Shown piece after piece: positions 1 to 11,159 of a stretch of 11,159 nucleotides of DNA; position 1 is the first letter of the stretch; each line of letters begins with the position of its first letter. A program made the translations under genes and the position numbers. Origin of the DNA: an uncultured Thermococci archaeon (lineage in GTDB: Archaea; Methanobacteriota_B; Thermococci; Thermococcales; CAYNOZ01); assembly GCA_964436705.1 (NCBI GenBank), contig CAYTEI010000057.1:1-11159 (forward strand), in the 5' to 3' direction. The notes beneath the pieces were generated by a model. That model was not told the DNA's origin, made no database searches, and saw only the letters and a program-made list of their open reading frames with translations.

Positions 1-60
1 TCAGAATCATTACTAATAATCAAACCCCCAAATAATAACTAATAAAAAGAAATAAGAGAA

Positions 61-2001
61 TTACTTGAAGTATGAGAAGTAATCCTCCATGTGCGGGCTT
101 GTATCTCCTTTAAGCCATATCTCTATCGTGATATCGCCATCGCTAAATCCTAGGTCTATTTCTTTCCCGATTTGGCTTGATCCTATTGTCTTTGAGTCTC
201 CTGCTCCATCCTTAACCACGAACCAGAAATCATTATTACTTGTTTGATTCTTCACGGTTGCCTCGATCTGGACCTTGGCCGGTGTAAAACCTAATTGCTT
301 TGATTCTACTCCGTTTCCTTGCGGCTTACTACCGATTGAGTATTGATAGATTGCATTGCTTCCAGTTCCAGCGATCTCCATGACGGTTCCTCCATCATCA
401 AACCATACATCTACTGGGTTTCCATCCTCGCTTATTGAGTTGCTCCAATCTGATCCACTAGTAATAGTGCTGGCATCCCATGCTGTGCTTAGAGAGAATG
501 CTTTGATTGACCCTCCGTCATCGATGATGTAGGCTTCAGTTCCGTCTGGCCTAATATTTCCTCCTTGAATACTGCTACTTGCGTTATTGCTTAGGTATTC
601 AGAGACTGTTCCTTGGCTCATTGTAGTTATATCCCAGGCAGTTCCTAAACTCCATACACCAATGGATCCTTGTCCATGATCAAAGGTCATCAGTTTGGTT
701 CCATCCGGCTTAAACGCTATTGTTTTCGGATTATCCTCAACATAAGGAGTCATTCCTGTCATATCAAAAGTATTAAGGCTGCTTGCTGTGGTTACATCCC
801 AGGCAGTTCCTAGGGTAAATGATTCGATCTTGTTACTGTATTGATCCAGGATATACATCCTTGTTCCGTCTCTCCTGAACTCAATTGCCTGCGGAGTATT
901 ATAACTAATAGAATGAGTTCTTGGACTGCTTGGATTTACGACTGAGGCAATATCATGGGCTGTATTAAGATCGTATTCCTGTACCTGCGAACTTGTTAGC
1001 ACATATAATTTGTATCCTGAATCTCCTATGAATGAATCTAATGGAGCGCTGGTTGAACTATGACTGGTTTCGTAGGATTTACTCTGAATATTCCAGTATC
1101 CACCACTAGCTGTATGTTCAAGATAGTAGTCCGTAGTGTTTACGGATACGCTATTCTGTGTATCTAGTTTTGTGGCATCCAGGAAGGCATCCATCAATCC
1201 ATCATTATAGTTTAGCCTATCTAGGCCTCTGTCGAATAAGATCCTGGTCTGACCTCTAACCAGGTCTCCTCTTAGCTTGGCAATTGATTTGCTGTTTTCC
1301 TCTATTCTTTGGGCGTTGTTGACTGCTGTTTTGATATCGGCTTGGTTGACTCCTGCGTTGCTTACTTTTGCGTCTAGGTTGTCTAGGATTCTTTGGGCTA
1401 GGCTGTCTGCGGCTGGAGAATCATCACTCAGATCCTCTAATAATTTATTCTTCACCCATTGCTCGATCTCGGTTTGTGTGTTTTTGTCTGTGGCTGTTTT
1501 CCCTGCGTTACTGATCTTTGCGTCCAGATTATTGTATAATAGTTCGGCAATACTGTTACTATTAAGAGTATCATCGCCTAGAGGGTTGTTTAGTTCGTTA
1601 AATACCCAGGTCTCGATCTCTGACTGCGTATTCTTATCTCCACTTCCTCCTGCTTCGCTCACCTTAGCATCTAGGTTGTTGTATATTCTCTCTGCTATAC
1701 TATCGGTTGTTAATGTGTCATCGCTTAGATCATCATTCAGCTTATTCATTACCCAGGTTTCTATTTCGCTTTGAGTATTCTTTCCTCCATCGCTTACTGG
1801 AGCATCTAGGTAATCTATTATTCGCTGCGCTATACTATCCTGTGTAAGGCTTGCTCCACTTAGGTCTTCTAGGAGTTTGTTCTTTACCCAGTTCTCAATC
1901 TCTGCTTTGCTGGGTTTAAGATCGGTATCGTCGTGTTGTTCGCCATCTGCCCATATTATGCTTAGAATTTCTTCTTTTGTTAAATTATCTATATCTCCCA
2001 T
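61..2001 (-). CDS. 646 aa putative tail fibre / receptor-binding adhesin with three parts. N-terminal: 4 tandem ~45-50 aa repeats (K-N-T-Q-S-E-I-E-T-W-V..N.L...L.....SIA.R....NLDAKVS.AG). Central: 4 beta-propeller-like blades (..PDGT..Y...D....I..FSL.TAWD..T). C-terminal: beta-rich domain.
   Basis: A long ORF with no in-frame stops. ATG at 1999-2001 is preceded on the minus strand by GGGAGGG (plus 2007-2013) with a 5-nt spacer. It is the last gene in a co-directional structural operon. Internal repeat architecture read directly from the translation, PDGT/AWD motifs resemble PD40 (TolB-like) propeller repeats. Confidence 0.6.
   Translation of the reverse strand: MGDIDNLTKEEILSIIWADGEQHDDTDLKPSKAEIENWVKNKLLEDLSGASLTQDSIAQRIIDYLDAPVSDGGKNTQSEIETWVMNKLNDDLSDDTLTTDSIAERIYNNLDAKVSEAGGSGDKNTQSEIETWVFNELNNPLGDDTLNSNSIAELLYNNLDAKISNAGKTATDKNTQTEIEQWVKNKLLEDLSDDSPAADSLAQRILDNLDAKVSNAGVNQADIKTAVNNAQRIEENSKSIAKLRGDLVRGQTRILFDRGLDRLNYNDGLMDAFLDATKLDTQNSVSVNTTDYYLEHTASGGYWNIQSKSYETSHSSTSAPLDSFIGDSGYKLYVLTSSQVQEYDLNTAHDIASVVNPSSPRTHSISYNTPQAIEFRRDGTRMYILDQYSNKIESFTLGTAWDVTTASSLNTFDMTGMTPYVEDNPKTIAFKPDGTKLMTFDHGQGSIGVWSLGTAWDITTMSQGTVSEYLSNNASSSIQGGNIRPDGTEAYIIDDGGSIKAFSLSTAWDASTITSGSDWSNSISEDGNPVDVWFDDGGTVMEIAGTGSNAIYQYSIGSKPQGNGVESKQLGFTPAKVQIEATVKNQTSNNDFWFVVKDGAGDSKTIGSSQIGKEIDLGFSDGDITIEIWLKGDTSPHMEDYFSYFK
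1336..1917 (-). repeat. In-frame tandem coding repeat. There are 4 units of ~135-150 nt encoding ~45-50 aa helical-looking repeats in the N-terminal stalk of the 646-aa protein. The units are diverged at DNA level (about 70-75% identity by eye).
   Basis: Four consecutive peptide units begin KPSKAEIENWV / KNTQSEIETWV / KNTQSEIETWV / KNTQTEIEQWV, each ending ..NLDAKVS.AG. The matching nucleotide periodicity is visible (for example acccaggtctcgatctctgactgcgtattctt at ~1606 versus acccaggtttctatttcgctttgagtattctt at ~1752). Confidence 0.75.
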
Positions 2002-2013
2002 TTTTTCCCTCCC

Positions 2014-2358: not shown

Positions 2359-2721
2359 TTAATAGGTCCATCCACATAATAAGCGGGTTTTTGATCCGTC
2401 ATAATACTTTATTTTGCCTGAATTATCTAGCCATTGTTGGCCTTTTACTGGTGAGGTAGGGTCGGTGCTCCTTGGCTCTATAACTACTGATTCTACTTCC
2501 CAGTTGGTGCCATTATCGTAGTACCATAGTTTTTGGTCAATTGCGAGAAATTTCCTACCTTCATCACCAGGTTCAGGTCTCTCATTAAGGGGTCCCGCAA
2601 TCACCATTTCAGTATCTATAACTTCAAAATTAGTGTTTAGTGGTATATGCCAGTCTGTACTTCCGGCTTCAGGCTTATCCAAACTATGATTATCCGTTTT
2701 AACCATAAAAAAACATCTCAC
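2359..2721 (-). CDS. 115-120 aa hypothetical structural-module protein. The likely true start is the ATG at 2704-2706 (MVKTDNHS...), not the GTG at 2719-2721.
   Basis: Intact ORF, co-directional, with a 13-nt gap to the upstream gene. Aromatic/Gly-rich C-terminus (GQQWLDNSGKIKYYDGSKTRLLCGWTY). No family recognised. Confidence 0.45.
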   Translation of the reverse strand: MRCFFMVKTDNHSLDKPEAGSTDWHIPLNTNFEVIDTEMVIAGPLNERPEPGDEGRKFLAIDQKLWYYDNGTNWEVESVVIEPRSTDPTSPVKGQQWLDNSGKIKYYDGSKTRLLCGWTY

Positions 2722-2734
2722 AAAAATAATTTAA

Positions 2735-3880
2735 TTAGAATGACCAGGTAGATAAACTATTATCGAGTGCTTGGATTTTAGTTTCGAAAAGATCTTTTTC
2801 TAAGTTCTCTATTTCTAGGTTAGAGGTCTCGTTGCCTGGTTCTAAGGTTAAAGTTGTGATCTTTGGCTCTACCTTGGCTAATCTGATTCTATAGTTTTCT
2901 AGGTGAATATCTTGATCTTTATGTTTGGCTGTGACGTGATCTCCTGGTTCTAGAGATTTTTTCAGATATTCTTCTGTGCTTATCTCTACTTCGGCGGTGA
3001 TAATTGAGGTATTTAGTTTTGATAGTTCAATATTTGATTTTGCTTTTAGAGAATTCTTAGAAGAGATATTATTGTTTACAATTGCTTTTTCTCTTATAAT
3101 TTCGTTTTTTATTAGTTCGTCTTCTTGGGTTGTTGTTTCTATTCTTTTTTCGTTAATTGATCCTGTTGACACGACTCTAGATATGAGATCTATATTTTTG
3201 GTGTATTTTATGTTTTGTACGGTTTTTAGTTTTCCTTTGTTTTTTCCTAGCATCTTTTTGAGGGTTACTGTTCTTGTTTGGTTGTTTGTTTTCCAGTCCG
3301 CTGTTTTTAGGTTTTCATTATTGATTATGTAGTAATAATTGTTTGCTAGAGCTTTGATCCAGTCTAGCTTTGTCCAGTATCTTCCAAGTATGCTTAGGTT
3401 AATGGTTGAGTCACTGTATTCTCCTTCTCCATAACCGAAGTATCCATAAAGCCACTGCCTATCAAGATCAGATCTCCATTTTGTGTTTCCTAATATATCT
3501 TCTAGGATCGTTCCAATATCTGTGTCTTTGTACTCTGTGATGTATTCGCTGGGGCTTTCCTCCCACTCATAACTCGACCCATCGCTCGTTCGGTGGAGTC
3601 TCTTATCTAGGGATATGTATTCATGGCTCATCGCATCTATAAAGATAAAATCATTAATGATTCGATAATCAGTTATAAAACCTTCCTCTATGGTTCTGTA
3701 TGCTTCTAGGCTTATCGGGCTGTAAAGAGTAGATTCAACAACGGACTTGTTATATAGGGTGAATGGAATAATAATTGTGAACTCGTTGATTTTATTGAGT
3801 TTTTTCTTTGCGCTAAAATCGTCTATACCTATGTCTGTCTCTTTTTCTGTTTCTTTGTATGTTTTTAGGGTTATCTTCAC
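2735..3880 (-). CDS. 381 aa hypothetical virion protein, N/K/T-rich and AT-rich coding sequence. Possibly a tail/baseplate or fibre-associated protein.
   Basis: GTG start at 3878-3880 preceded by AGGTGA (plus 3887-3892) with a 6-nt spacer. The SD overlaps the stop codon of the upstream 830-aa gene (10-nt intergenic gap), so the two genes are probably translationally coupled. The plus-strand shadow ORF 2976..3332 reflects the extreme T-richness. Confidence 0.6.
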   Translation of the reverse strand: MKITLKTYKETEKETDIGIDDFSAKKKLNKINEFTIIIPFTLYNKSVVESTLYSPISLEAYRTIEEGFITDYRIINDFIFIDAMSHEYISLDKRLHRTSDGSSYEWEESPSEYITEYKDTDIGTILEDILGNTKWRSDLDRQWLYGYFGYGEGEYSDSTINLSILGRYWTKLDWIKALANNYYYIINNENLKTADWKTNNQTRTVTLKKMLGKNKGKLKTVQNIKYTKNIDLISRVVSTGSINEKRIETTTQEDELIKNEIIREKAIVNNNISSKNSLKAKSNIELSKLNTSIITAEVEISTEEYLKKSLEPGDHVTAKHKDQDIHLENYRIRLAKVEPKITTLTLEPGNETSNLEIENLEKDLFETKIQALDNSLSTWSF

Positions 3881-3886
3881 TTGGTA

Positions 3887-3892
3887 TCACCT
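3887..3892 (-). promoter_or_regulatory. Shine-Dalgarno AGGTGA for the 381-aa gene, overlapping the stop codon of the upstream 830-aa gene
   Basis: Minus-strand sequence GTAGGTGATACCAAGTG: AGGTGA, then a 6-nt spacer, then the GTG start. Confidence 0.5.
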
Positions 3893-6383
3893 ACTTCACA
3901 CTGAGCTCTCTGATCACTTGATAGTCTCTGAGGAGGTTTCTACTAATATCTTGAACTCCATCTCCGTGGATTGGGATTAGAAGAAAATCTGAAATATAAA
4001 TAGTATTACTATTGGTACTGTTCTTTTCTAACTCGAATATCACGGGATCTGTTTCTCTTGGTACTCGTAGTGGTCTTATGTATTCTTTGTAGTTTTCTGT
4101 TAAGGTTATTGATCTTGTTAGTCCGGATCCGTTGAGGCTGAGTGAATTATTGTTACTATCTTTGATTCTGAATAGTAGATCATTCTCTACTTGGTTTTCA
4201 TCTTTGGCAAGGATTACTGTTAAGTATTCTCCGTGGGTTAGATTGCTATATTTTAGTTTTTCTATGGTCTCTGAGGTTGTTAGATTGGTTTTTATGGTTT
4301 GGTGGTGTTGGTGGTTGGTTGGAAGGGCTCCTATCCCGATCTTAGTACCTTTAGGTATGGAATGGGTTTTCATTTTGCTGGTGGCGTTGATCTTTTGGTT
4401 TGTTGTGATGAGATCTAGGTGGTCTTTGGTTTTTGGTATTCCTGTTAGGTAATTATCTCCTAGAGTTACATCGAATGTATTATTGTGATCCTTCGAGCTG
4501 ACTCTATGACCTACATTACTTTCAAGACATAGTGCGAAATCATTAGCTCCATAACTAATACTCCATAGATCTCCTGAGAACTCTTCCTTAAGTACCAGTC
4601 TTCCTTGATACTCTCCTCTCCTTAGCTTTAGAGACCATCTGCTAAGATCTTCCGAGCCAAGAACTAGTTCTACTATGGCTTTTTCAGGTGAATAATCCCT
4701 AACAACAACATCCCTAACCTCCACACTACTACCTGATTGAGGTTCAAAGTTGATGGTTTCAGAACTACTCCATCCCCCCTTGGTATACACCTGTACTTCA
4801 ACTGGATCCCTCAACAAAAACCGAACCAAAGAATTTCCAATACCAGGGTCCCCACTGAACCTATGATTAGGATCGTAGACCTGAACCCAATCACTAGGAT
4901 CATCACTATTCATATCATCATATATTTTAACCTTTCCAGTATTTTTCTCAACGAAATCACTTAGTTTGAAGCCTAGGAATGCGTTATAAACGGGATCTAA
5001 CCAGATAGAATCGATCTTAATTTCGTTACTCACTGATAGGTTCTTTTCTACTGATACCTCAATTTCATCTCCACTGTTTTCCTCACTTACTTCGAATTCC
5101 TGGGTTTCTATGATGGTGTATTCTGTATTGTTAGTTGTCTTTTGTTCTTGCAGAAGATTTAATCCATTATTTATGTCTTCAACTTTGACTAGGATATCTT
5201 CTTCTATGTTGTTGTCTTTTAGTCCTATTTTTGCTTTGTAGGTTCCTTTTGGTATTCCATTTTTTGATCCTATCTTGAATTTTGTGTTTGCTTTTTCTCC
5301 TTGGGATCTTAGGATATTGGCTGTCATCCCCAAGAAATCTTCTAGGTATATTTCAACTCCACCCACAAGATCTCCACATGAACCATAGGGAAAACGGAAT
5401 ACCTCCATTTCACCTGCGGCTGATCCATAACTTCCACTGGAACTCATTACAACCAAATCACCCGTCTCCGGATTAATAAAACGAACATCACCACAACCAA
5501 CCGGAAGACAAACCTCAGTACACCCAAAAAAACCAAAACCACCATCATCAAAAAGAACAGACCTCAAAAAATAAGATAATCCATAATTACCAGATTTCAA
5601 ATAAGTAACATCATCTAATACAACTTTTACCAAATTACAACGATCATCATCCCCCACCCTAATACTCTCTATACCTAGGTACCCCTCTAGTCCATCGATC
5701 CTGAACGAATTATAACCCGGGCCTCTTTCATCTAGAGTAAGCAGATCTTCTCTCTGCTGCTCAACACTCTTCCCATCACTATGCCCCATCTCAGATAAAT
5801 AACCAATGATCTTCCCAGAATCCAATCTCTGGCTGGAACTACTGATCCTAGCCGAAGCACTTACCCCACCAACAATCTCCTGTTCTGTTTCGCTAGTTAG
5901 ATCTTTTCCTCCGTAGATGGGTATCTCTATGTCACCAATGAATAGTTCTTTCTTATCAATTAGAGCTATTTCTGTCACTATTTGTGCTCTAAATATTTCC
6001 TCACGATCCTCGTATGGACCTACTTTGTTTATGTGAGAGTTTAGGATGATTCCACTTTCTAGTTCTGAAATGTTTTGTAAGGTTTCTAGTGCTTTGTCTC
6101 CATAATTTCTTAACGCCTCTCTATACTTCTCCGAGGCCTCCATATAGTTATTGAAATGTATTAAGATGTTTATGCTTAGTTCTAATATGTTCTTTATTGG
6201 TTTTGCTTCTTTTTTGGTTTGGTTTCTTTTTATGATGATTTGTGGGTAGTAATGTTTGCTGTATTCGTCTATGGTTTTATCTCTACTTCCATAGAGCTCC
6301 GAATAAACTCTACTGATTGATAGATTATTTTGTAGTAGATTCTTCACTTCTATTATGGTTTTGGTGGAGAATTGGTTATTCAT
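3891..6383 (-). CDS. 830 aa large structural protein. Candidate tail tube/nozzle, appendage or baseplate-like component of a short-tailed virion. Contains a Gly-rich middle segment with a 4-Cys cluster (GCTEVCLPVGCGD ... SCGD) and an N/T/K-rich C-terminal third.
   Basis: 2.5 kb uninterrupted ORF. ATG at 6381-6383 is preceded by GAGAGG ~10 nt upstream on the minus strand. It sits immediately after the head-completion genes, where podovirus-type tail genes normally lie. No recognisable tape-measure features such as long helical repeats. Confidence 0.7.
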   Translation of the reverse strand: MNNQFSTKTIIEVKNLLQNNLSISRVYSELYGSRDKTIDEYSKHYYPQIIIKRNQTKKEAKPIKNILELSINILIHFNNYMEASEKYREALRNYGDKALETLQNISELESGIILNSHINKVGPYEDREEIFRAQIVTEIALIDKKELFIGDIEIPIYGGKDLTSETEQEIVGGVSASARISSSSQRLDSGKIIGYLSEMGHSDGKSVEQQREDLLTLDERGPGYNSFRIDGLEGYLGIESIRVGDDDRCNLVKVVLDDVTYLKSGNYGLSYFLRSVLFDDGGFGFFGCTEVCLPVGCGDVRFINPETGDLVVMSSSGSYGSAAGEMEVFRFPYGSCGDLVGGVEIYLEDFLGMTANILRSQGEKANTKFKIGSKNGIPKGTYKAKIGLKDNNIEEDILVKVEDINNGLNLLQEQKTTNNTEYTIIETQEFEVSEENSGDEIEVSVEKNLSVSNEIKIDSIWLDPVYNAFLGFKLSDFVEKNTGKVKIYDDMNSDDPSDWVQVYDPNHRFSGDPGIGNSLVRFLLRDPVEVQVYTKGGWSSSETINFEPQSGSSVEVRDVVVRDYSPEKAIVELVLGSEDLSRWSLKLRRGEYQGRLVLKEEFSGDLWSISYGANDFALCLESNVGHRVSSKDHNNTFDVTLGDNYLTGIPKTKDHLDLITTNQKINATSKMKTHSIPKGTKIGIGALPTNHQHHQTIKTNLTTSETIEKLKYSNLTHGEYLTVILAKDENQVENDLLFRIKDSNNNSLSLNGSGLTRSITLTENYKEYIRPLRVPRETDPVIFELEKNSTNSNTIYISDFLLIPIHGDGVQDISRNLLRDYQVIRELSVK

Positions 6384-7155: not shown

Positions 7156-8109
7156 CTATATTCCTGAGAACTCTAGAACAGCTGACTCATTATAAACCTC
7201 AAAAGAGGAGATTTCAAGCATTTTCTTTCTGGTTTCTATTTCGTTGTCCTTGTAGGTTAGTGTTGTTACTCCTTGTCCTATTGGTTTCCTCATAAATCTA
7301 TCATTAGTATTCGCCAACATGAAAGCCTCTCCCTCATCTAGTAGGTAGCTAGGCTTTATGCTGTTAAGTTCGTCAAGAGTATCTACGATTACTTGTCTGA
7401 ATAGTTCTGTATCATTGTTTACCCATTGTCTTAGTTGGCTCCACTGAGTACTCGAAACATAAAGGTTGTATCTTAGTCCTGTGGTTAGTGCATCGTCTAG
7501 TTTGTCTAGTCCACTCTGAATATCTTCTTGTATGTTGTCGAGGGTGCTCCAGTCGCTTCCTGATACGGTTAGGTTCTTTGATAGGTTTCTTAGTCCTGGG
7601 ACTTCGTATTTTTGGTCTCCGTTCACTATTAGGTCTTCTATTGATCTTCCTATGGCTTCTGCTGCTATCTGTATCTCCCTCTCATCAACATCGAACTGGT
7701 TCCTTGCGGAATCCCATCTCCAATTCGTTTGAAGTTCTAGATGGTGTACTGGTACCATTACGCTTCCCGGGACCAGATCAGATCTATCCAGGTTCTCACT
7801 CATACCATCCATATCCCTAACAGCTTCCCTCTCATTCTTATCCCAATACCACTTAGACGTAGTGATCGCAGGACCACTAAGTCTTTTAATGGACATATCA
7901 TCAGCAAAAACAGTGACATCACTGATAGCGCTTTTTATTTCTTTATCTATTTGTTCGAATGCGTCTTTGGGTATTCTGTCATTCGTTATTGGTTCACCGA
8001 TCTTTGTTTGGATTGCTTCATTTGTCATGAAAACAGAGTTGCTTAGATACTTGGATTTTTTAAGAGCTCTTCTCAGAGTGCCAGGATCCTTATCTCGATT
8101 AGCCTGCAT
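7156..8109 (-). CDS. 317 aa putative major capsid protein (HK97-fold type, no delta domain)
   Basis: Flanked upstream by the protease/scaffold and decoration-like genes and downstream by a connector-like gene. This matches the canonical lambda-like order C/Nu3-D-E-FII. The size is typical of scaffold-dependent MCPs. ATG at 8107-8109 with GGAG ~10 nt upstream. Assigned by synteny, not by recognisable sequence motifs. Confidence 0.6.
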   Translation of the reverse strand: MQANRDKDPGTLRRALKKSKYLSNSVFMTNEAIQTKIGEPITNDRIPKDAFEQIDKEIKSAISDVTVFADDMSIKRLSGPAITTSKWYWDKNEREAVRDMDGMSENLDRSDLVPGSVMVPVHHLELQTNWRWDSARNQFDVDEREIQIAAEAIGRSIEDLIVNGDQKYEVPGLRNLSKNLTVSGSDWSTLDNIQEDIQSGLDKLDDALTTGLRYNLYVSSTQWSQLRQWVNNDTELFRQVIVDTLDELNSIKPSYLLDEGEAFMLANTNDRFMRKPIGQGVTTLTYKDNEIETRKKMLEISSFEVYNESAVLEFSGI

Positions 8110-8126
8110 ACATAAACATCTCCAAA

Positions 8127-8597
8127 TTATTTGGTTAATACGTGGATTCTTTTAGCCTCAGAAGAAGCATCCACGCCTTCAAGTGCAACACCAACGACTG
8201 CCTCAGACTTCTCAACACTAGTCTCCCCACCAGTATCATTTTCCGTATGACTATGACCACTCCTAGGAGCTAAGTAACCATTACCAGCGCTCACCAACTC
8301 AGCCCCTTCAGAAACACTTTCACCAGAATCAAGCCAAAGAACAGCCGTACAACCAGAGACATCCATAACATTCACCGGCTCACCACCCTCATAACTCTCC
8401 GAGATATTACCAGTCAAAGGATCACTAACCACAGCAACACCAAGAGCCTCCTCACCAGCACCTCCATGTTTCTGCACCTTAGAATCTGTGTTTAGCCCTA
8501 CTAGCATGCCTGGGGTTATGGATTCGGCAGCCTCCGGATAACCTAAATCAACAGGATTTCCACCTGAAACAATCTTATTATCAGGTTTCTCTAACAC
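8127..8597 (-). CDS. ~157 aa Gly/Val/Ser-rich putative capsid decoration/cement protein (DUF2190-like). The track ORF extends to 8672, but its first ~25 residues are a hydrophobic artefact-like extension.
   Basis: Pattern G.LVGLNTD..V...GGAG.EALGVAVVS...G....YEGGEPV.VMDVSGCTAVLWLDSGESVSEGAELVSAGNGYL...EAVVGVALEGV...KRIHVL matches the G/V-periodic DUF2190 family found between scaffold and MCP genes. The GTG at 8595-8597 is preceded by GGAGG (8606-8610) with an 8-nt spacer. Confidence 0.55.
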   Translation of the reverse strand: MLEKPDNKIVSGGNPVDLGYPEAAESITPGMLVGLNTDSKVQKHGGAGEEALGVAVVSDPLTGNISESYEGGEPVNVMDVSGCTAVLWLDSGESVSEGAELVSAGNGYLAPRSGHSHTENDTGGETSVEKSEAVVGVALEGVDASSEAKRIHVLTK

Positions 8598-8664
8598 ACA
8601 AAAAACCTCCAAATATATACACAGAAAAGAACGAACCAAAAAAACAGACACAGAAATTAGATAA

Positions 8665-9114
8665 TTATTCATTTAATGCATAAGCTCCATCATGATGACG
8701 ATTCACTTCAGGATCATTTTCCTCGTTATTTGTTGGTGGCTTCTTCTCTTTCTTCCCCTCAAAGTTGTTACTGGTTCTAAGATCTTCTCTTATTGCCTCC
8801 AAATGATTAAGATCCATCTCCTCATAGAACTCCTTATCCCTATCAGTCTCATCAACCAACTCATTGACAATGGTCTCTTTTTTCTGTTTACTTTCTTTGA
8901 TCCTTTTTTCTTGTACTTCTTTTGCTTTTTTTAGTTCGTTGACTTCTCCAAGTTCTTCGTATTCTTCTAATTGTTGGTTGAGTTCCTGGTTTTCCTCCTT
9001 GATTTCCTGCTTCTTGTTTTGTAGTTCTTTTTTAGTTTCTTGGAGCTCGTTACGTTCTTGTTTTAGTTCATTTATTTGTTTCTCTAATTCTTCGATCTTT
9101 TCTTCTTCACACAT
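8665..9114 (-). CDS. Nested in-frame scaffold protein (149 aa, MCEEEKIEELEKQ...) initiated from an internal start within the protease-scaffold gene
   Basis: An in-frame ATG at 9112-9114 sits exactly at the protease/coiled-coil boundary. It is preceded on the minus strand by AAAAAAGGAGGTGAAAAAAGC-ATG (GGAGGTGA = plus 9122-9129, 7-nt spacer). The frame was checked: (9789-9114) = 675 = 3 x 225. Confidence 0.4.
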   Translation of the reverse strand: MCEEEKIEELEKQINELKQERNELQETKKELQNKKQEIKEENQELNQQLEEYEELGEVNELKKAKEVQEKRIKESKQKKETIVNELVDETDRDKEFYEEMDLNHLEAIREDLRTSNNFEGKKEKKPPTNNEENDPEVNRHHDGAYALNE

Positions 9115-10053: not shown

Positions 10054-11159
10054 TCAATCCTCTAATTTATTGAATTTCTGAATAATTTCTCTTTTAATCT
10101 CTTCATTAGTATCTAAAGAATCCAGAACCGTTTCTACCTCATCCTCAGTAAGATCATAAAGATCAAATACAATAGCATCAATCTCATTATCAGTTTCTTG
10201 AATCTCTCTTTCCAGCTTTTCAGCCTTCTCTTTGTTTTCTATGAACTTTTCTAGTCCTGATTCCACGTCTTCAAGTTTCGGTAAAGTCAACTTCTCCAAC
10301 CTATCTATTAGGGAGTTAGTCTTAGTAGCTGTTTCTCTGAAGTTTGCGAATCCACCGGCCTCATCCAAAGCCAGAGAAACAAACTCCTCGATCAAAGGCC
10401 TCAACTTCTCATCAACATCAAACCTCATCGCAGGTACTTTCTCAGTCTTAAAGTAACCCCATTGATCCAACTCATCCTCATCGATACTTTCAGATTCATC
10501 AGGCTTGTAACGAGCAGAAACCTTCAAGACTAAATCATCGTTTCTTTCCTCAAACTCAACACCGCCAATCCTCAAACTATCCCGATCAGCAGAAGTATCA
10601 CTAACAACTTTGTCGGAGAGGCCTTCAACAGGCATATAGAGTTCTCCTAAAGTTTTTCCGTCAGGATCCTCAACTGAAGTTCCTAGATAGTCTAAAATTT
10701 CAAGGTTTATGCCATCCAAATTATCTCTCTTTTCTCTGGCTTCGGATACCAGTTTATTCAACCTCGTGATTTTTTCTTCAGAGTCCACAACAGGTACAGG
10801 ATTGAGATAAGAAGTTTTGAATCGGAAGAAACCTCCCCTCAATCTTGAACTGGTATTAGAAATGAAAAACCAGGTAATTTTGCTATTGAGCTGAGCTAGA
10901 TAATATCTCATTTTTTCTTTAACTTCTAACTCCACTCCGTAACCTGTATCTGCAAAGTAAATACCTCCCTCTCTGTCCAGAGTAAATTCACAGCCATTAC
11001 TTATATCCGGAGTTAGTATCTTCTTTGAATCAAATACTTCTTTTTCTCTCGGACACCACAGTGCGTACCATTTCTCATAATTCATAGAGGATGTCCCACG
11101 GGAAGATAATCGCTTCTTATTGACCTCAAGATAAGAATAAGTCTTTGGATACTCATTTT
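10054..11159 (-). CDS. C-terminal portion (>=368 aa, 5' end outside the window) of a Type IIG restriction-modification enzyme / N6-adenine DNA methyltransferase (BREX PglX-like is possible), with a TaqI_C-like target-recognition domain
   Basis: The reading frame stays open from the annotated ATG (11083-11085) to the window edge (..NEYPKTYSYLEVNKKRLSSRGTSSMNYEKWYALWCPREKEVFDSKKILTPDIS..). This matches the conserved E.YP.iy.YL....kL..R.......WyeL.rpRe...f...KIv.pdi. block. Further hallmarks are LAQLNSKITWFF (LNSK motif), RLRGGFFRFKTSYLNPVPV (RGG..EF....L..LPIP motif) and the C-terminal IDAIVFDLYDLTEDEVETV (vy.LYgLTeEEI..vE). Confidence 0.7.
   Translation of the reverse strand, partial: NEYPKTYSYLEVNKKRLSSRGTSSMNYEKWYALWCPREKEVFDSKKILTPDISNGCEFTLDREGGIYFADTGYGVELEVKEKMRYYLAQLNSKITWFFISNTSSRLRGGFFRFKTSYLNPVPVVDSEEKITRLNKLVSEAREKRDNLDGINLEILDYLGTSVEDPDGKTLGELYMPVEGLSDKVVSDTSADRDSLRIGGVEFEERNDDLVLKVSARYKPDESESIDEDELDQWGYFKTEKVPAMRFDVDEKLRPLIEEFVSLALDEAGGFANFRETATKTNSLIDRLEKLTLPKLEDVESGLEKFIENKEKAEKLEREIQETDNEIDAIVFDLYDLTEDEVETVLDSLDTNEEIKREIIQKFNKLED

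Follow-up and report, generated by a model that had tools for sequence, protein, structure and literature searches.

To our knowledge, the proteins by which archaeal tailed viruses recognise their hosts have hardly been characterised. One complete structure of such a virus is available, that of HFTV1, and the searched text of its description contains no mention of a propeller (PMC12494034). A receptor-binding architecture that can serve for comparison has been described for the staphylococcal phage phi11, whose protein Gp45 (PDB-ID: 5EFV) combines a helical stem formed as a trimer, a platform of three five-bladed propellers with a proposed N-acetylglucosamine (GlcNAc) pocket, and a beta tower (PMC4901313). 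The same order of parts, with a helical stem, a five-bladed propeller in the middle of the chain and a beta end part, is found in the product of a gene located at positions 61..2001 on the minus strand of contig CAYTEI010000057.1 (assembly GCA_964436705.1, uncultured Thermococci archaeon), the whole 11,159 nucleotides of which are referred to here as the window. Five-bladed modules resembling that of phi11 are reportedly also listed in the literature for the phages 80alpha and P68. However, the likeness to Gp45 is without sequence homology, since 5EFV was not matched in a PDB sequence search (E ≤ 10) and the identity in structural alignment is 10%. Gp45 is a homotrimer with a triple-helical stem and an intertwined beta tower; in a monomer model of the protein presented here, the stem is predicted as helical with low confidence and the end domain as a self-contained seven-stranded sandwich. 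By analogy, the combination of stalk, five-bladed propeller and immunoglobulin (Ig)-like end would follow the design known from staphylococcal phages and represent another example of it, not a new kind.

With a probability of roughly 70%, the gene encodes the distal tail fibre or receptor-binding protein of an HK97-type tailed double-stranded DNA virus, which most probably infects a halophilic archaeon. The 646-residue product is a mosaic of four modules, namely the N-terminus with the repeats, a helix with the neck, the propeller and the Ig-like end domain. The succession of helical repeat stalk, beta-propeller and C-terminal beta domain, which had been proposed in the initial annotation, is borne out by repeat alignment and by AlphaFold2 (AF2) models. 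The gene and its parts are arranged as follows:

61..2001, minus strand: gene of a putative tail fibre / receptor-binding protein, a complete open reading frame (ORF) of 646 residues plus stop codon in the ORF list
2007..2013, minus strand: Shine-Dalgarno-like GGGAGGG, 5 nt before the ATG, read from the sequence, function putative
1918..2001, minus strand: N-terminal 28 residues preceding the repeats, candidate virion-attachment segment
1336..1917, minus strand: four stalk repeats, from repeat alignment with statistics and from the secondary structure (DSSP) of the AF2 model
1090..1335, minus strand: long helix, neck/linker and low-confidence linker to residue ~304, from AF2 and sequence register
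334..1089, minus strand: five-bladed beta-propeller, residues ~305–556
64..333, minus strand: C-terminal Ig-like seven-stranded beta-sandwich, residues ~564–645, plus short linker, from AF2 and HMMER
31..60, minus strand: T-rich tract immediately past the stop codon, possible transcription end

The protein is acidic, with an isoelectric point (pI) of 4.29, and rich in S, D, T, G and N; scans of its full length against Pfam, PHROGs and NCBIfam gave no match above threshold. Its propeller was delineated with a blade hidden Markov model (HMM) built from the family of homologues, which places five blades at residues 318–358, 368–416, 423–471, 476–521 and 527–556. Blades 2–4 are strongly alike (z 12–17), and blades 1 and 5 have diverged. 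AF2 predicts 20 strands within residues 309–555, corresponding to five blades of four strands each, and the strand order suggests that the N-terminal strand 309–315 probably closes blade 5. The full-length model, whose alignment included 28 propeller units taken from homologues, reaches a predicted local distance difference test score (pLDDT) of ~90 over residues 300–556; a second model, covering residues 297–646, has a mean pLDDT of 84 and a predicted template-modelling score (pTM) of 0.74. The propeller foreseen in the initial annotation is thus confidently predicted, but with five blades in place of four. The blades measure ~52 residues and follow the family motif F(K)xDGTK(M)Y......V.(Q)Y.LSTAWD.sTa.

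The blades had been likened to the PD40/TolB type. However, the PD40 model (PF07676) is absent at E ≤ 10 from both the propeller and a five-fold blade consensus of the family, and at E ≤ 0.1 from the whole 646-residue protein; a precomputed PD40 match is present in just 3 of the 120 homologues listed. Instead, the family consensus matches SGL (73.7 bits), Lactonase (60.4 bits) and the YVTN repeat TIGR02276 (44.6 bits), all above threshold, and the best match of the family profile among solved structures is the YVTN propeller of a surface-layer (S-layer) protein from Methanosarcina mazei (PDB-ID: 1L0Q; E 8.8e-17), which is also one of the top Foldseek matches. Taken alone, the protein of the window stays under every Pfam threshold, scoring 14 bits against a Lactonase cut-off of 21.7 bits. 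Since the consensus passes the SGL, Lactonase and TIGR02276 thresholds and the profile matches 1L0Q, the blades probably belong to the YVTN/lactonase superfamily, and as judged from sequence their type is YVTN/lactonase/SGL, not PD40. Like the protein of the window, 1L0Q continues from its propeller into an Ig-like (PKD) domain; it is cellular, whereas the protein of the window is viral. The propellers of 1L0Q, the lactonases and the SGL proteins consist of seven (or six) blades of ~40–45 residues, in contrast to the five blades of ~52 residues with an extra LSTAWD turn found here. The five-blade unit with 52 residues per blade and the LSTAWD turn is a distinct family without a Pfam model.

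In a search of 5.8 billion proteins, at least 212 proteins matched the propeller, every match being confined to residues ~300–560. Full-sequence E-values go down to 1e-102, a figure inflated by tandem copies; the identity per unit is 27–39%. Among the best 120 of the 212 matches, the protein of the window included, the number of blades peaks at 10 (42/120) and 15 (20/120), the median spacing is 52 residues, and a single five-blade unit occurs in just two proteins, one of them being that of the window. What varies across the wider family is the number of propellers per protein. In most relatives a short N-terminus is followed by two or three propellers in tandem, giving 10 or 15 blades, whereas the protein of the window has one propeller and is alone in combining it with a helical repeat stalk and an Ig-like end domain. 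By its ~52-residue blades, by the signature F.xDGTxxY ... LSTAWD and by its homology to phage tail-module proteins it is a member of this five-bladed "LSTAWD" family of phages.

The homologues checked lie on phage or viral contigs and are not unrelated cellular surface proteins. Carriers among cultured phages are Lentibacter phage vB_LenP_ICBM2, Roseobacter phages CRP-2, CRP-9, CRP-13 and CRP-738, and Synechococcus phage S-SKS1. Gp51 of ICBM2 (A0A3G2YRG7) sits between tail assembly chaperone genes, in a region described as a variable tail-fibre module of cobaviruses (PMC6775973), and the neighbours of gp43 of CRP-13 include genes whose annotation reads putative tail fibre or putative tail structural protein. 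A metagenomic contig, L003, carries a homologue together with a capsid gene, an SU10 adaptor and Phage_tail_APC chaperones; two further contigs (L001 and L002) have the homologue next to endolysin genes. Between 11932 and 19336 on the podovirus-like L003, three consecutive propeller-blade genes are followed by two DUF7483 proteins, each with a Phage_tail_APC chaperone, an array that looks like a multi-fibre arsenal. Predicted viral structures from BFVD superpose on the propeller at 2.2–2.7 Å over ~255 residues. Currently, propeller homologues are annotated as "hypothetical" or as YvrE/YncE-like lactonase. The earlier view that a propeller is uncommon in tail fibres and possibly a novel fold does not hold for a family of at least this size, which is abundant in phages, and a five-bladed receptor-binding protein is already known from phi11.

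Upstream of the propeller, the stalk (residues 29–222) consists of four repeats of 45–50 residues (29–73, 74–122, 123–172 and 173–222), in agreement with the number given in the initial annotation. Pairwise protein identity between the repeats is 40–69%, with Smith-Waterman z-scores of 14–28 against shuffles; the codon-aligned DNA identity is just 53–64%, and neither Tandem Repeats Finder nor a seed-based repeat finder detected the repeats in the DNA. The repeats are duplications of long standing that selection at the protein level has preserved, and their description as diverged at the DNA level, ancient and probably constrained can be retained. The repeat motif is KNTQSEIExWV..L....(D)SIAxRI..NLDAKVSxAG, and each repeat is predicted to form a helix-loop-helix, two helices per repeat being assigned by DSSP in the AF2 model (pLDDT 45–60). 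The repeats are followed by a long helix (residues ~220–257) with one heptad-spaced hydrophobic stripe formed by A226/I233/I240/L247/I254, as seen from AF2 and the sequence register. AF2 confidence is low for the 28 residues preceding the stalk.

The single relative of the stalk, obtained when the N-terminal 300 residues were compared with the 5.8 billion proteins, is P0121, a distant and acidic protein which also has NLDAKVSNAGKTATDKN. No match to the N-terminal region was found in IMG/VR and the JGI metagenomes, none to the capsid protein encoded in the window in IMG/VR and GTDB genomes, and neither the capsid protein nor an 830-residue protein of the window gave a tblastn match in 50,697 phage records. 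Across the collections searched (5.8 billion proteins, IMG/VR, JGI metagenomes, GTDB and phage records), neither the virus nor the stalk had a close relative in which repeat number could be compared. The sole PDB sequence match, a marginal one to the EspA coiled coil (E 0.003), was taken as compositional or helical similarity, not as homology.

The beta-rich C-terminal domain that had been noted previously is a seven-stranded sandwich in AF2, with strands at residues 564–645 and a pLDDT of 82–96 once homologues were included in the alignment. By itself the domain has no Pfam match at E < 0.05. An exhaustive HMMER search with residues 556–646 matched 12 proteins, six of which (P0123, P0125, P0126, P0129, P0131 and P0132; 257–562 residues) carry the domain at the extreme C-terminus. 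In these six the domain shows 29–37% identity and a clear common motif, and the middle domains differ, with a WD40/PQQ-like propeller in P0125 and regions resembling lectins or carbohydrate-binding modules (CBM) in the others. All six are acidic, as is the fibre (pI ~4.1–4.3). The remaining HMMER matches are weak and fall in giant proteins, on tandemly arranged Ig-like repeats of the He_PIG, Big_9 and DUF7743 types. P0122, which is made up of He_PIG/Big_9 repeats, is matched by the domain in 19 tandem stretches (E 5e-22). With a profile of the domain, nothing was confirmed in IMG/VR, and the blank result against the 5.8 billion proteins probably reflects E-value scaling or a word-index limit.

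Between the long helix and the propeller, the neck/linker (residues 257–289) contains NYNDGLMDAFLDATKLDTQNSVSVNT, and the six proteins with a terminal domain have a common neck motif, ..D.F.D.sKi.s...v.V.t. The contigs of the C-terminal-domain relatives are viral, and genes of archaeal type occur on two of them. L010 encodes an SU10-like portal and a capsid, L011 a protein-primed family-B DNA polymerase (PolB), L012 an archaeal histone-fold protein (CBFD_NFYB_HMF, 7168–7380), and L013 a protein with weak winged-helix matches including haloarchaeal HVO_A0261_N and DUF7343 (4890–6128). No homologue of the other window proteins was found on the contigs carrying C-terminal-domain relatives, and in terms of sequence similarity the window and these contigs have fibre modules alone in common. 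Residues 86–110 of a 120-residue ORF two genes upstream of the fibre (2359–2721, minus strand) contain TDPTSPVKGQQWLDNSGKIKYYDGS, a motif with matches at the N-terminal ends of P0132 (pairwise E 7e-4) and P0126 (pairwise E 1e-3); in these two proteins the motif is fused to the fibre, and in the window it resides in a separate small protein. The product of this ORF, which also has a weak PHROG match to the head-tail adaptor Ad2, may be a fibre adaptor.

Within a structural module on the minus strand, the fibre gene is the final complete one. In gene order, the module encodes a protease/scaffold protein (DUF2213, phrog_530), a putative cement protein, an HK97-type capsid protein (Linocin_M18/DUF6260, phrog_771/264), a DUF4054 connector, a head-closure protein, four unrecognised proteins of 830, 381, 120 and 99 residues, and the fibre, and the window is a structural module of a tailed virus with an HK97-type capsid. 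This placement at the distal end of a head-to-tail module, together with the phage tail-fibre context of the homologues, fits the role in host recognition that was proposed from the outset. The GGGAGGG element comes immediately past the stop codon of the upstream 99-residue ORF. Downstream, the contig stops 60 nt beyond the stop codon of the fibre gene; these 60 nt are T-rich, and a scan of them revealed no hairpin terminator. A diversity-generating retroelement targeting the C-terminal domain had also been considered. However, no ORF in the window contains a reverse transcriptase domain, and no direct or inverted repeat of ≥30 nt that could serve as a template touches the 3' part of the gene, the contig ending 60 nt downstream. 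Inspected by eye, without a predictor, the N-terminus (MGDIDNLTKEE...) shows neither an evident signal peptide nor a membrane anchor.

Three further ORFs bear on the identity of the virus and its host:

3891–6383, minus strand: 830-residue protein between the head-closure gene and the fibre, no Pfam, PHROGs or PDB match
2735–3880, minus strand: 381-residue protein between the head-closure gene and the fibre, no Pfam, PHROGs or PDB match
10054–11085, minus strand: TaqI_C ORF of 343 residues, stand-alone TaqI_C specificity domain at residues 14–99 (Pfam E 5e-10)

Since the 830- and 381-residue proteins match nothing, the tail machinery is unrecognisable by sequence. In the TaqI_C ORF the domain is followed by a very acidic helical tail, without a methylase domain. 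Haloarchaeal tailed viruses (HF1, HF2, HSTV-3, HCTV-7/9/11 and HRTV-5) account for 18 of its 19 tblastn matches in the phage collection, and the matching region of these viruses belongs to N6 methylases or type IIG enzymes. All 11 proteins of the window are acidic (pI 4.2–5.4), and its G+C content (GC) is 38.9%. Because of the acidic proteome, the GC of 38.9%, the TaqI_C matches and the archaeal marks on the contigs of the end-domain relatives, the host is most probably a halophilic archaeon of low GC. Between the protease/scaffold and capsid genes, a 181-residue protein (8127–8672, minus strand) gives sub-threshold cement or minor capsid matches to families of the phages E217, Pam3 and XM1 (24.3 and 21.9 bits; cut-off 27), which hints at a cemented capsid.

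By analogy with phi11 Gp45, the helical part of the protein would oligomerise, probably as a trimer, and anchor the fibre to the tail, with the stalk setting the reach of the fibre. The propeller could act in a lectin-like manner and bind a surface sugar or glycoprotein of the host, for example S-layer glycans. Relative to the family, the protein of the window carries insertions in the variable inter-blade loops, and these loops may form the binding face. The Ig-like end domain might add low-specificity adhesion or cap the oligomer. Host range would then evolve through replacement of the middle module, framed by the conserved neck and end domain.

Several observations weigh against an assignment as distal receptor-binding fibre. 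The location in the virion is read from the position of the gene, and the neighbouring proteins of 830, 381, 120 and 99 residues, matching nothing above threshold, give no indication of the tail type. The residues conserved in the propeller are found again in each blade and could have a purely structural role, and no ligand site was identified. The model of the stalk is of low confidence (pLDDT 45–60), and its repeats lack the canonical heptad pattern of a coiled coil. Similarity between the neck and that of the six proteins amounts to 14.9 bits, a value equalled by 1 of 3000 shuffles, so that neck homology to the P0123 group is a weak lead only. In addition, the assignment of the host is indirect.

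An unlikely alternative places receptor binding in the C-terminal Ig-like domain at the distal tip and leaves the propeller as a structural platform or as a secondary module for reversible binding. Distal tips are usually what contacts the receptor, this domain is terminal, and Ig-like repeats of this kind also make up cellular adhesins; moreover, it is kept across otherwise unrelated viral contigs in proteins that are all acidic (pI ~4.1–4.3), which could reflect a common host surface. However, specificity normally resides in the variable module, and here it is the middle that varies (propeller, WD40-like, lectin/CBM-like) while the end is kept at 29–37% identity. In phi11, too, the proposed GlcNAc site lies in the propeller and not in the tower (PMC4901313). 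That the propeller is instead an enzyme, a depolymerase of glycoside hydrolase-like or lactonase-like type which degrades a surface polymer as in tailspikes, is quite improbable. Sequence identity to enzymes is just 4–12%, and the score for Lactonase lies under its threshold. Conserved positions identical in every blade (F.xDGT.xY, LSTAWD) are as a rule a mark of structural repeats, not of one asymmetric active site, and the stacking of 2–4 tandem propellers seen in relatives would be unusual for enzymes.

Marginally less probable again is a protein outside the tail, be it a fibre or decoration of the head, or an adhesin of the cell surface whose gene is carried as cargo. The match of the family profile to an archaeal S-layer protein that likewise joins a propeller to an Ig-like domain is in keeping with such an origin, and the tail proteins of this virus, to which the fibre would attach, are unrecognised by sequence. 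Yet the gene occupies the distal end of the structural operon and is translationally close-packed with the genes upstream, its N-terminus displays no evident signal peptide or membrane anchor on inspection, and the homologues checked are located in phage tail-fibre modules beside tail assembly chaperones. We therefore retain the reading as distal tail fibre or receptor-binding protein.

As a tentative extension, an archaeal halovirus may have joined a bacteriophage-type propeller with a frame made of a neck and Ig-like cassette, giving rise to an inter-domain mosaic. The propeller may otherwise be almost confined to bacteriophages of marine and freshwater bacteria, and neck and end domain may circulate among viruses whose hosts have acidic proteomes and are probably halophilic archaea. 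Carriers of the cassette may comprise contigs with SU10-like capsids, elements with protein-primed PolB and unclassified small contigs. In such a mosaic, each of the five near-identical blades might possess its own sugar site, by analogy with multivalent lectins resembling tachylectin-2. If true, viruses of halophilic archaea with low GC, for instance Nanohaloarchaeota or Haloquadratum, would thereby gain their first concrete candidate for receptor binding.

In conclusion, the protein encoded at 61..2001 is an ordinary but well-defined mosaic receptor-binding protein, and no new mechanism is opened by it. Its clear domain map, with stalk repeats, neck, single five-bladed propeller and Ig-like end, is open to tests of glycan and S-layer binding. 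At the same time, it lends a name and a fold to a large propeller family of more than 200 members, whose proteins in phage genomes currently carry the mistaken label lactonase YvrE/YncE or are listed as hypothetical. The interest of the finding is modest and lies in the probable archaeal host, in the evidence for exchange of modules and in the chance to mend a widespread mis-annotation.

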